A stretch of 4,874 nucleotides of DNA. It comes from a virus (taxonomy: Duplodnaviria; Heunggongvirae; Uroviricota; Caudoviricetes). The position numbers and the translations under genes were made by a program. Positions 1 through 4,222 of this stretch are shown in pieces (position 1 is the first letter of the stretch; every line of letters begins with the position of its first letter). Below the pieces are notes generated by a model that was given only the letters and a program-made list of their open reading frames with translations, did not search any database and was not told where the DNA came from. The stretch lies in IMG/VR virus record IMGVR_UViG_2700989171_000006; one strand, 5' to 3'.

Positions 1-31
1 AGCGGGCTTGTAATGGGTTAAGTGATAACAG

Positions 32-792
32 ATGTCTGGAAATATAGGGGCAAATCCAGCAATCATCAAACTGTCTTGGATAGAAGCCGCAGTGGATGCG
101 CACAAAACGTTAAATTTCGAACCCAGTGGAAGAAAGCGTATTGGCTTTGACGTGGCTGACAGTGGTACAGATAAGTGCGCTAACGTTTACCGTCACGGAT
201 CCGTTGTTTTCTGGGCCGACGAATGGAAGGCCAAAGAAGATGAATTACTGAAGAGCTGCCAGCGTACTTATCAGGCGGCGCTGGAGCGTGAAGCAGATAT
301 TGTTTACGACTCTATCGGTGTTGGTGCGTCTGCCGGTGCTAAATTCTCTGAAATTAACGCTGACCGGAAGAGCGAGAACGCATACGCGCGACGTGTGAAT
401 TACCAGAGGTTTAACGCCGGTGCTGGTGTGCATGAGCCAGATGACGAGTACAACGGCATCCCCAACAAAGACTTTTTCGCAAATCTTAAGGCTCAGGCAT
501 GGTGGCTGACCGTTTCAGAAATACGTTTAACGCCATTAACAACGGAGAACAGTATCCTGTGGATGAGCTGATCAGCATAGATTCTCGTTGTCCGTTGCTT
601 GAAAAGCTGAAACTGGAACTGACAACACCTCATCGTGATTTCGACCGTAACGGACGTGTGATGGTCGAAAGTAAAAAAGACCTCGCAAAACGCGAGATAC
701 CGTCACCAAACGTTGCTGATGCATTCATTATGGCCTTCGCGCCAATCGATACATCGCTGGATATCTGGGAACAGCTGGGGAGACAGGCCTGA
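32..792 (+). CDS. Terminase large subunit, C-terminal nuclease domain; reading frame interrupted (ORF pieces 32..571 and 499..792), so possible pseudogene or indel error
   Basis: The frame of 32..571 encodes motifs typical of the RNase-H-like nuclease domain of large terminases (RIGFDVADSGTDKCA, ADIVYDSIGVGA). The frame of 499..792 encodes the conserved C-terminal acidic motif (SPNVADAFIMAF) and ends in a TGATG stop/start overlap with the next gene. The two pieces are in different frames, with the switch needed between about 490 and 571. Stop codons occur in all three + frames within 11..47, so an upstream ATPase domain cannot be continuous with this ORF as sequenced. Confidence 0.75.
777..782 (+). 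promoter_or_regulatory. Shine-Dalgarno-like GGGGAG for the portal gene
   Basis: GGGGAG lies 9 nt upstream of ATG 792..794. Confidence 0.5.
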
Positions 793-2258
793 TGGCACGA
801 AACAAACAAGCCCTGCGGCGAACTGTGCAGGCCACAGCTGATGGTTATGAGAATTTTATTGCCCGAGTAGGGATGCAGACACCTAACCAGCACTCAGCAT
901 CCACCTACCGGGCTAATTTCACCAGTCGTAACCGCATGCTGGTGGAATGGTCCTATCGTTCATCCTGGATCATCGGCGAAGCAGTCGATGCTATCCCGGA
1001 TGATATGACCCGCAAAGGCATTCGCATCACTTCGGAAATTGATGCAAAAGATCGTGGCATTCTCGAATCACAACTGGATGAGTTGCAAATCTGGGATGCG
1101 CTGAATGACGTGCTGAAATGGTCGCGCCTCTACGGCGGCGCGGTGGGTTTCATCATGATTGAGGGGCAGGCACCAATGACCCCGCTGCGACCCGAAACCA
1201 TCGGTAAGGGCAAGTTTAAGGGGATTCTCCCGCTCGACCGCTGGATGGTCGACCCGGCACTGACCCGCCGCATTAAAGATATGGGGCCGGACCTGGGTAA
1301 ACCTGAGTTTTACGATGTGGTGACCACAGCAACGGGAATTCCTGCCTGGCGCATTCATCACAGTCGCCTGATTCGCTTTGATGGCGTCACGTTGCCATTT
1401 CAGCAGAAGATGACCGAGAACGAATGGGGAATGTCGGTTGTAGAGCGTATCTGGGATCGTCTTACCGCGTTCGACAGCGCTACTGTCGGCGCGGCGCAGC
1501 TGGTCTACAAGGCGCATTTGCGTACCTACAGCGTGGAGAAGCTACGCGAGCTTATCGCACTTGGTGGTCCTGCGTATGAAGCGTTGCTGAAGAATATCGA
1601 CCTGATTCGACAGTTCCAGAGTAATGAAGGCATGACGCTCATGGACTCGCGGGATAAGTTTGAAACCCATCAGTACAGCTTCAGTGGTCTGGATGACATC
1701 CTTTCGCAGTTTGCAGAACAGATTAGTGGCGCTGTTGGTATCCCACTGGTGCGGTTGTTCGGACAGTCCCCGAAAGGATTTTCTACCGGTGATGCAGACC
1801 TTGCCAACTATTACGATCGCATCAGTTCGTTGCAGGAGAGGCGTTTACGTCTTCCGGTGCGGCGGATACTGGACATCATGCATCGTTCGGAACTTGGCAA
1901 GCCGCTGCCGGACGATTTCACGTTTGAGTTTAACCCGCTCTGGCAAATGTCTGATGTCGATCGCTCAACGGTGGCGTTAAACACCACCAACGCAATCAGT
2001 ACGGCGATGGGTGATGGTCTGATGACACTGAAAGCCGCTATGACTGATTTGCGAGAAAATTCTGACGTAACCGGCATAGGGGCATCCATTACCAACGAGG
2101 ACATCGAGAATGCCGAAGATGAAGCGCCGCCCGGCATCGGCGAACCTGATGACGAACCGCAGGAGCCGTCAGGCGGAAATCCGGTATCGAACCAGCCTAC
2201 GCAGGATAGCGAGGGCGGTCGGAGACATCGTAAATGGTCGCTACGATGGTTCAAATGA
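792..2258 (+). CDS. Phage portal protein (DUF1073-like family as recalled)
   Basis: 488-aa ORF with GGGGAG 9 nt upstream. Its ATG overlaps the terminase stop (TGATG at 790..794). It sits in the canonical slot between terminase and the MuF-like gene. Size and sequence character fit portal proteins, and it ends in an acidic low-complexity tail (EDEAPPGIGEPDDEPQEPSGG...). The last ~50 codons overlap the next gene. Confidence 0.8.
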   Translation: MARNKQALRRTVQATADGYENFIARVGMQTPNQHSASTYRANFTSRNRMLVEWSYRSSWIIGEAVDAIPDDMTRKGIRITSEIDAKDRGILESQLDELQIWDALNDVLKWSRLYGGAVGFIMIEGQAPMTPLRPETIGKGKFKGILPLDRWMVDPALTRRIKDMGPDLGKPEFYDVVTTATGIPAWRIHHSRLIRFDGVTLPFQQKMTENEWGMSVVERIWDRLTAFDSATVGAAQLVYKAHLRTYSVEKLRELIALGGPAYEALLKNIDLIRQFQSNEGMTLMDSRDKFETHQYSFSGLDDILSQFAEQISGAVGIPLVRLFGQSPKGFSTGDADLANYYDRISSLQERRLRLPVRRILDIMHRSELGKPLPDDFTFEFNPLWQMSDVDRSTVALNTTNAISTAMGDGLMTLKAAMTDLRENSDVTGIGASITNEDIENAEDEAPPGIGEPDDEPQEPSGGNPVSNQPTQDSEGGRRHRKWSLRWFK

Positions 2259-2892
2259 CAGTATCACGGAAATTATTGCGGCGCTGGAGCGTTACAGTGA
2301 AATCATCACCCCCTGGGCGACAAAGGTCGCGGAAAACTTTACTGCGGACCTAACCCGGCAGAACGAGAAAGTTTGGCGGCAACACAGCAAGAACATCAGT
2401 CGCGAGCTCCGCAATCTTGTGGAAAGCGCTCCTGTGGGCCAGGTGATGCAATCCATCATCGCCGAACAGGTCAAGTACATCAAATCTCTGCCTCTCGAGG
2501 CCGCAGACAGGGTGTACGACATCCAGAACAAAGCGATAGAGGCTGTTGTCACCGGTGGTCGGGCGGAGCAGTTTGCTAAAGAGATTGCATCTACCGGCGA
2601 TGTTGCTAAGTCTAGGGCCGATCTGATTGCCCGAACGGAACTGGGAAGAGCAACGGGCGCGCTGGATATGGCCCGAGCGATAGCTATTGGCTCGGATGGT
2701 TATATTTGGCGTACAGCCGATGATGGCGATGTCCGAGATTCCCACGATCACATGAAAGGTAAATTCGTCCGCTGGGATTCACCTCCAACTTTGGACGGCA
2801 TGACCGGCCACGCGGGCGAGCTGCCAAACTGCCGCTGCTATAAAGAGATCGTGTTTGTTCGCGTTCCATTCGCAATGAAAAGGGCAGCATAA
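2110..2892 (+). CDS. Head morphogenesis / minor head protein, MuF (SPP1 gp7) family
   Basis: 260-aa ORF whose C-terminal half carries MuF-type motifs (IARTELGRATG, WRTADDGDVRDSHDHMKGKF, NCRCY). GAGG lies 9 nt upstream of ATG 2110. The start is uncertain (ATG at 2110, 2119 or 2149), and every candidate lies inside the portal ORF. Confidence 0.8.
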   Translation: MPKMKRRPASANLMTNRRSRQAEIRYRTSLRRIARAVGDIVNGRYDGSNDSITEIIAALERYSEIITPWATKVAENFTADLTRQNEKVWRQHSKNISRELRNLVESAPVGQVMQSIIAEQVKYIKSLPLEAADRVYDIQNKAIEAVVTGGRAEQFAKEIASTGDVAKSRADLIARTELGRATGALDMARAIAIGSDGYIWRTADDGDVRDSHDHMKGKFVRWDSPPTLDGMTGHAGELPNCRCYKEIVFVRVPFAMKRAA

Positions 2893-2895
2893 CCC

Positions 2896-4103
2896 ATGAA
2901 ATACTTTTTTGAGACCAGGCTCGGGGAAACCCGATACCGCCTGGCTGACGGCTCGTTGCTGTGCAAAGACGTGCCGATAGGACGAACAGGTAAGCAGCTC
3001 TATGGTGCTGATGACCTGCCAAAACTGAAACCCGATAAGTTCGTTGAAATAGTCGTCACGCGTTCTCCTGAGCAGGTATTCCATCCGGCCACGCTTGCCT
3101 CATTCGAAGGGATGAGCATCACGATCCTGCATCCTGAAGATGAAAACGGGAATGTGCGGCTGGTAAATCCCGAGAACTGGAAAGTGCTTGCTGTCGGGCA
3201 CCTCCAGAATGTCCGGCGCGGGACGGGTGAGCAGTCTGATTTGATGCTGGCTGACCTTATCGTCAAAGACGAAAGCGCCATTCAGCTTATCGAAGATGGC
3301 CTGCGCGAAGTGTCGTGCGGCTATGACGCGGAGTACGAGCAGACCGAGCCAGGTAAAGCCGAGCAGGTCGATATTACCGGAAACCATGTGGCTCTTGTCC
3401 CTAAAGGCAGAGCCGGAAATCGTTGTGCAATTGGAGACAGAGACACAATGGCAAATCAAAAGAAAAACTGGTGGAACCGCATGCGTGCGGCCATCAAGAC
3501 AGGAGATGCCGACACCATGAACGAACTGGTGGAGTCGGCTCCCGCATCGGTTACAGGAGATGAGGGGGATTTGCCGCAGGGCGTTAATCTCAACATCAAC
3601 CTGTCCCCGCAGCAACCACTACCGGACAAAGCACCAGAGATGGGCGGAGATCCAACCGGCGACAGTGATGATGACCTCAAAACATTACTGAAAGCCCTGC
3701 TGGCTAAGCTGGAAAGAAATGCCACGGGCGATAACGATAATAAGCCTGACGATAATCCGACCGGTGACGGCGAGGACGATGAAGAGGAAACCACGATTAC
3801 TGGTGACTCAGCCTGGCGTGCCGAAGTTATCGTTCCGGGTATCGATCTGAGCCGTAAGATGAAACCGACCGCGTTCAAACGCGAGGTTCTGGCTTCCGCT
3901 GACAAAACGCTGGTTCGCCAGATAGTCGGTGATGCGGATATCCGCAAATTACCGAAACAATCGGTCGACATGGCGTTTAATGCCGTGTCTGAGGTTGCCA
4001 AAGGGCGAAACACCCGCGCCACCACCGGCGATGCACAGCGCCTAAACATGGGCATGACCAGTATCGCTTCCCTGAACAAACAAAACGCTGAATTCTGGGC
4101 AAA
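2896..4103 (+). CDS. Large acidic head-assembly protein with a DUF2213-like N-terminal domain; putative prohead protease/scaffold; 3' end hidden by the N-run
   Basis: ATG 2896 lies 3 nt after the MuF stop, and 402 codons are readable before the N-run. The N-terminal ~180 aa resemble DUF2213 phage proteins as recalled. The C-terminal half is acidic and low-complexity with a helical-looking stretch (LKTLLKALLAKLERN). The gene occupies the protease/scaffold slot between the MuF and capsid genes. The ORF-track extension through X residues to the stop at 4240..4242 cannot be interpreted. Confidence 0.7.
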
Positions 4104-4222
4104 NNNNNNNNNNNNNNNNNNNNNNNNNNNNNNNNNNNNNNNNNNNNNNNNNNNNNNNNNNNNNNNNNNNNNNNNNNNNNNNNNNNNNNNNNNNNNNNNN
4201 NNNNNNNNNNNNNNNNNNNNNN
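4104..4222. other. Run of 119 N (masked or unresolved sequence)
   Basis: Directly visible: the N characters start at 4104 and end at 4222. Confidence 0.99.

Follow-up and report, generated by a model that had tools for sequence, protein, structure and literature searches.

An IS2 insertion very probably accounts for the apparent free-standing terminase nuclease domain in a Shigella flexneri-type prophage

Why should an open reading frame (ORF) that resembles the nuclease domain of a phage large terminase begin directly behind a cluster of stop codons? The question is raised by the first bases of a 4,874-nucleotide stretch of DNA (IMG/VR record IMGVR_UViG_2700989171_000006; the whole stretch is called the window here), in which ATG 32 opens a 179-codon ORF that ends at position 571. 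The original prediction, made from the letters alone, offered two answers: either the terminase is carried as separate ATPase and nuclease ORFs, with ATG 32 and an upstream AAGTGA as a weak nuclease start, or the gene has a second lesion in addition to an apparent frame switch at 490..571, so that the terminase is defective or the assembly is of low accuracy.

The five stop codons that prompted the question are real, and a mechanical stop scan of positions 1-47 returned exactly the coordinates given before. On the + strand, TAA 11-13, TGA 23-25 and TAA 26-28 are all in the frame of ATG 32, TAA 19-21 lies in the second forward frame, and TAG 45-47 lies in the third, 3' of ATG 32 (the earlier frame labels correspond to position modulo 3). 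Against the background of the window, where the + strand codes almost throughout, such a cluster is rare, since stops in three of three forward frames occur in 0.9% of its 47-base stretches, and five or more stops in 2.6%. However, the 47 bases are poor in C (15 A, 15 G, 13 T, and 4 C), and among shuffles at this local composition 38% had stops in all three frames and 34% had at least five. Therefore, the cluster is no signal by itself, and shows merely that the stretch lies outside the terminase reading frame.

The stretch is the right end of the insertion sequence IS2. In a megablast search with window 1-800, positions 1-58/60 were 100% identical to IS2 records, with annotated matches including features named 'insertion sequence:IS2' (U82084.1; phage SfX), genes named 'IS3-like element IS2 family transposase', and 'IS2 OrfB' pseudogenes of Stx phages, and the match was found again in 4043 E. 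coli records. Positions 1..58 (+ strand) are thus the last 58 bp of IS2, 100% identical to annotated copies, with the window starting inside the element; the same bases occupy positions 5970-6027 of L005, one of the near-identical relatives described below, where they end a complete 1331-bp IS2. Within them, positions 3..47 (+ strand) hold the last 14 codons and the TAG stop of the transposase (orfB/OrfAB), and their translation, RACNGLSDNRCLEI*, is the orfB C-terminus in L005. The annotated IS2 transposase CDS of E. coli FDAARGOS_943 (L001) ends at locus position 4047, which corresponds to window 47, and together these two matches identify TAG 45-47 as the true stop codon of IS2 transposase orfB.

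Overlapping this coding end, positions 18..58 (+ strand) form the 41-bp right inverted repeat (IRR) of IS2, which ends in ...CCA and holds both AAGTGA (20-25) and ATG 32. The ends of IS2 are imperfect inverted repeats of 41 bp and 42 bp, and the right end, when read on the bottom strand, is 5'-TGG...TTAA-3' (PMC3299598). In the L005 element, the reverse complement of the IRR, TGGATTTGCCCCTATATTTCCAGACATCTGTTATCACTTAA (TGGATTTGCCCC...ATCACTTAA), aligns with the 42-bp left inverted repeat (IRL) with one gap, whereas an ungapped comparison of the two ends gives just 14/42 matches; the gapped alignment is needed because the IRL is one base longer. ATG 32 and AAGTGA are IS2 sequence and not an intergenic spacer before a nuclease gene, and the suggestion that they form a weak nuclease start is not supported.

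The terminase sequence begins where IS2 ends. When the window was aligned with both the intact gene of E. coli VL40 (L002) and the IS2-carrying E. coli FDAARGOS_943 (L001), it tracked IS2 to ...GGGGCAAATCCA (base 58) and the terminase from GCAATCATC... (base 59, codon 222), and similarity to the uninterrupted terminase gene began at base 59 only. From there to the true stop, TGA 790-792, positions 59..792 (+ strand) are the 3' part of a large terminase gene, codons 222-467, comprising the nuclease domain, as a pseudogene with an internal frameshift. Window 59-800 has 98-99% DNA identity to E. coli prophage genes annotated 'PBSX family phage terminase large subunit', and 59..792 shares 99% identity with the gene of E. 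coli VL40 (L002 2338-3741), which is intact over 467 codons. Pfam and NCBIfam scans at E up to 0.01 gave no family match for the two terminase ORFs of the window, and their identity therefore comes from the DNA identity to this intact gene. The intact protein reaches 143.6 bits with NCBIfam TIGR01547 (cutoff 105) and E 1e-38 with Pfam Terminase_3, and its Pfam Terminase_3C score of 20.8 bits is under the curated cutoff of 26.7. Its alignment with PDB 4idh, the gp2 protein of Shigella phage Sf6, has an E value of 2.5e-79 and extends over residues 10-449, with both domains in one chain.

The fused architecture is the rule among homologous large terminases, since a tblastn search with the 467-residue protein returned 842 phage records with a single match over at least 80% of its length. 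Together with the single chain of 4idh, this bears out the original assumption that the ATPase is normally fused N-terminal to the nuclease. Homologues read through the IS2 site as ...ESDDDAAIIKLSW... (...SDDDAAIIKL... in the intact genes) and have no equivalent Met. The original prediction would have given up its reading of a lesion if an unrelated gene ended at 11-21 and if homologous nuclease domains were free-standing proteins beginning at the equivalent Met; an unrelated gene, the IS2 transposase, does end here, at 45-47 and not at 11-21, but among the homologues there is no free-standing nuclease domain that begins at such a Met. Crystallised nuclease-domain constructs (5c10, 5c12, and 8dkr) start at query residue 212-213, and the IS2 cut at codon 222/223 is about 10 residues past the ATPase/nuclease boundary. 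This position, so near the start of the nuclease domain, is why the downstream ORF resembled a clean nuclease domain. Among phages, the megablast search of window 1-800 against a phage collection recovered the IS2 end only, with no terminase match at or above about 85% DNA identity, and the closest phage relatives by protein search were Klebsiella temperate phages, at about 93% identity.

The window holds only the last 58 bp of IS2, and what precedes them, the rest of the element and the terminase gene's 5' half, is known only from near-identical relatives. An exact-match scan for the 34-base junction, with one genome per species, recovered Shigella flexneri SFBU1023 and the E. coli-labelled ECMA0423, and a look-up of the exact 179-residue ORF yielded six further large or complete assemblies, giving eight related loci (L003-L010), seven of them Shigella flexneri-type and one labelled E. 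coli. All eight carry the IS2 junction. The seven that span the full window differ from it by 1-4 substitutions and by no indels over 4755 aligned bases (99.93-99.98% identical). In every one of the loci in which the upstream side was examined (L003 and L005-L010), the terminase 5' half lies directly upstream of IS2, and the window's own upstream flank probably resembles theirs.

The IS2 of the relatives is 1331 bp long, has 42/41-bp imperfect inverted repeats, and lies in the same orientation as the terminase gene. Pfam HTH_Tnp_1 matches its orfA, rve, rve_3 and HTH_21 match its full orfB, and the RefSeq entry for the transposase carries the remark 'programmed frameshift'. Near-identity at the nucleotide level, the 41/42-bp repeats and a 5-bp duplication all place the element in IS2, while its 1331-bp orfA/orfB organization (OrfAB via −1 frameshift) is seen in the near-identical relatives, not within the window. 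It shares with known IS2 (IS3 family) the 1331-bp length, the TA...CA termini, orfA/orfB with a DDE (rve) transposase and the 5-bp duplication, with no notable difference, and the L005 copy differs by five substitutions from the IS2 of FDAARGOS_943. The IS2 copy at 4699-6027 of L006 (CP058589.1) appears 2 bp shorter, and its transposase is called as a single 408-residue ORF; this could be either a sequencing difference or a natural mutant with OrfAB fused in frame.

Both flanks of the element carry the target-site duplication, GCAAT, the right-hand copy of which is at window 59..63 (+ strand). In L003 and L005 it can be read directly (...GCGGCAAT, then IS2, then GCAATCATC...; with the longer flanks of the relatives, ...GATGATGATGCGGCAAT, then IS2, then GCAATCATCAAA...), and only one GCAAT stands at this site in the uninterrupted E. 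coli gene. Upstream of the element is a 227-residue ORF composed of terminase residues 1-223 and four residues from the IS2 left repeat, which stops at a TGA within the IRL, 1.33 kb upstream of the window. Matches to Pfam Terminase_3 (E 8e-39) and TIGR01547 (132.7 bits) were obtained for this ORF, which contains Walker A (GGRSSSKS, residues 30-37) and LWLEEA (123-128). An upstream ORF with Walker A, which the original prediction had proposed to look for, thus exists in the relatives, 1.33 kb upstream and with IS2 between the two halves.

Taken together, we regard it as close to certain that the stops and the apparent domain start reflect an IS2 insertion in codon 222/223 of a single-chain large terminase gene, in a lambdoid-type prophage of the Shigella flexneri lineage. 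What carries this reading is observed directly, namely the sequence identity, the junctions, the target duplication, the spread of the lesions, and an in-silico reconstruction described below. IS2 would have transposed into the terminase gene of a resident prophage, co-oriented with it and duplicating 5 bp (GCAAT), and the pathway known for IS2 is the IS3-family copy-out/paste-in route through a minicircle (PMC3299598). ATG 32 would have come to lie in frame with the terminase remnant by chance, and because it is in frame, gene callers report a 179-residue ORF that resembles a free-standing nuclease domain. The second lesion suspected besides the 490..571 switch is this insertion.

There is a small chance that the IS2 end is genuine and the upstream side is not a simple insertion, because recombination between IS2 copies (inversion, deletion, or translocation) has rearranged it or because the contig breaks within IS2. 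The upstream flank lies outside the window, and positions 4104-4222 of the window are a run of 119 N, indicating that the source is a gapped or masked assembly, which could differ upstream. IS copies are numerous in Shigella genomes: L005-L010 contain several other IS genes within 6 kb, and in L009 another IS2 right end occurs at position 1012. Most contigs with the 179-residue ORF are just 5–10 kb long, that is, broken at IS copies. Against such a rearrangement, the junction is present in eight of eight related loci, all loci examined upstream (L003 and L005-L010) show the simple insertion, the GCAAT duplication is direct in L003 and L005, and the loci differ by 1-4 substitutions and no indels over 4755 bases. 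The N run itself reaches from the end of the DUF2213 (Pa193_gp24-like) gene into the start of the cement-protein gene. In its place, near-identical S. flexneri genomes have 66 bp, and the run is therefore a scaffold gap or a mask of arbitrary length, not a mask of the same length. It leaves the terminase finding untouched.

The frame switch at 490..571 has a separate origin. The intact gene reads GCA TGG TGG CTG GTG GCT GAC, with TGGTGGC twice in tandem, whereas the window retains a sole TGGTGGC at 500..506 (+ strand). This 7-bp gap is the only indel from window 59 to 4102 relative to the E. coli copies, and the loss of 7 bp shifts the frame after Leu371 and thereby produces the switch. All eight related loci (L003-L010) share this deletion. 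Replication slippage classically leaves such a footprint, a short tandem repeat with one unit missing, and the deletion probably arose in this way; it is a second lesion of the gene, independent of IS2. Programmed frameshifting at 490-571 was considered as well and rejected, as the switch comes from a 7-bp deletion that the intact homologues lack and not from a slippery site.

As a result of the two lesions, the ORF at 32..571 (+ strand) is a chimera of 179 codons and no genuine gene; it consists of nine IS2 residues (MSGNIGANP), terminase residues 222-371 and 20 out-of-frame residues. The remaining C-terminal part of the nuclease, terminase residues about 372-467, is in an ORF at 499..792 (+ strand) in the original frame. 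The acidic motifs IGFDVAD and VYDSIG are within the 179-residue ORF, and the last one, NVADAF (residues 441-446), is in the 499..792 ORF, parted from the first two by the frameshift; going by the alignment and by background on Sf6 gp2, these motifs would contain the residues corresponding to the catalytic ones of that protein. When IS2 and one GCAAT were removed in silico from L005 and TGGTGGC was restored, a 467-residue ORF resulted, with only two substitutions (V122M and R157G) relative to the E. coli VL40 protein. The terminase region needs no lesion beyond IS2 and the 7-bp deletion.

Could both lesions be artefacts, the junction a misjoin of an IS2 read to the terminase gene, the frame switch an error in a homopolymer or repeat? 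The window does contain the 119-N gap, and the switch falls in a short tandem repeat, which is error-prone on some platforms. However, eight loci, deposited independently and seven of them spanning the full window, share this junction and this 7-bp deletion, and the chimeric ORF occurs on at least 1000 contigs; furthermore, a precise IS2 terminus with a 5-bp target duplication is the signature of transposition. An artefact is highly improbable on these grounds. Since both lesions recur in the eight related loci and the ORF on so many contigs, they are real and not sequencing errors, and the suspicion of a low-accuracy assembly can be set aside.

In the assembly collection, 1402 indexed blocks contain the exact chimeric ORF, the public contigs that carry it have names mostly from S. 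flexneri, and the databases list the 179-residue ORF as 'putative bacteriophage protein [Shigella flexneri 2a str. 301]' or 'terL-like domain protein'. Among 5426 complete E. coli genomes, none has the same contiguous junction, and the one E. coli record that covers 100% of the query (FDAARGOS_943) has its IS2 elsewhere in the same gene. The 4.44-Mb record L004 (CP178302.1), labelled Escherichia coli ECMA0423, has the same IS2 junction and 7-bp deletion, and it may be a Shigella/EIEC-lineage strain filed as E. coli. A literature search for this particular lesion found nothing specific.

A naturally split terminase, with separate adjacent ATPase and nuclease genes and the nuclease starting at ATG 32, would fit an ORF that begins only about 10 residues past the nuclease-construct start (query 212-213), but it is next to impossible, and we consider it refuted, since ATG 32 and the first nine codons are IS2 inverted-repeat sequence with no native start or ribosome-binding site, the nearest intact genes (98-99% DNA identity) are continuous over 467 codons and read straight through with no Met at the site, and the ATG 32 ORF is itself frameshifted.

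Both the intact homologue (99% DNA identity) and the upstream half score above threshold for TIGR01547 and Terminase_3, whereas a single uninterrupted polypeptide with ATPase and RNase H-like nuclease is lacking, as IS2 lies at 222/223 and the frameshift follows codon 371. The window gene is a pseudogene of a PBSX-family, Sf6-gp2-like terminase and no functional member, and the description of the terminase as defective was right. In Shigella phage Sf6 gp2 (4idh; nuclease domain 5c10/5c12), an N-terminal ATPase is likewise followed by a C-terminal RNase H-like nuclease, and the uninterrupted form of the gene described here carries Walker A GGRSSSKS and LWLEEA in the first of these domains and acidic motifs in the second. 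Unlike Sf6 gp2, the gene here is in three ORFs owing to IS2 and the 7-bp deletion, and its nearest phages are those of Klebsiella, not Sf6.

The same terminase gene has been hit by IS2 more than once. In E. coli FDAARGOS_943 (L001 2728-4058), an independent IS2 in the same orientation has its own duplication, GCTGG, at a site 222 bp upstream of the Shigella site. Two separate IS2 insertions in one 1.4-kb gene could reflect chance or a local target preference.

Other genes of the prophage head module are also of note. The portal ATG (792-794) shares a base with the terminase stop TGA (790-792), and an ORF for a Mu-F-like head morphogenesis protein, from 2110, overlaps the end of the portal gene by about 150 bp. 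Both the E. coli annotation and the Shigella gene calls place the start of the Mu-F-like gene at about window 2149. The genes at 790-794 and 2110-2258 are tightly coupled. At window 4519/4520, there is a 17-bp deletion (TCCGGTATACGTTGTCG, with TC on both flanks) relative to the E. coli FDAARGOS_943 copy. It lies in the gene for 'structural cement protein Gp24' and reduces the product from 168 to 118 residues (...IKKGDLH*), and is a third inactivating lesion in the same head module. The truncated 118-residue ORF is also called in L005-L010, and no locus has an indel relative to the window there.

The surroundings of the module are similarly affected. In L005-L010, further IS3-family elements hem in the prophage (about 1-3200 and 11815-12540), and L005 also has a group II intron reverse transcriptase. 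The Shigella loci have a disrupted lysis region upstream of the terminase, and they end in another IS just after the major capsid gene. These flanking IS elements explain why most short-read contigs with the ORF are only 5–10 kb long, and the broken cement-protein gene and the surrounding IS genes fit a prophage in decay. Shigella prophage genes commonly carry IS insertions and small deletions. As a case of IS-mediated prophage pseudogenisation in Shigella, the locus is typical, with several IS elements and the 7-bp and 17-bp deletions, and no difference from that pattern was identified.

Since IS2 parts the ATPase from the nuclease, which is itself split, the prophage would not be able to package DNA. 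Judged from its sequence, the terminase is probably a dead pseudogene in a decaying prophage, its fragments without function. Neither a + strand sigma-70-like site nor a terminator-like site was returned by a consensus promoter scan of the IS2 end and the junction, and the one thing in favour of expression of the terminase remnant is possible read-through from the transposase gene. One could imagine that the IS2-borne ATG 32, transcribed by read-through, yields a truncated nuclease fragment that is kept for a host function in S. flexneri. That the exact ORF is so widely conserved would fit such a role, although clonal descent is the simpler explanation, and the fragment lacks the C-terminal acidic motif through the 7-bp frameshift; we give this idea very little credence.

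The defect is ordinary and of a known kind, neither a new gene layout nor an assembly error. The insertion has been present in public genomes since that of S. flexneri 2a str. 301, and its biological weight is small. For annotation, it means that two database entries, the 'putative bacteriophage protein' of 179 residues and the 'PBSX family terminase' of 227, are halves of one pseudogene, and that the apparent free-standing nuclease domain at this locus should not be cited in favour of split terminases. As a pair, the IS2 junction and the 7-bp deletion could serve to mark the lineage of this S. flexneri prophage remnant.
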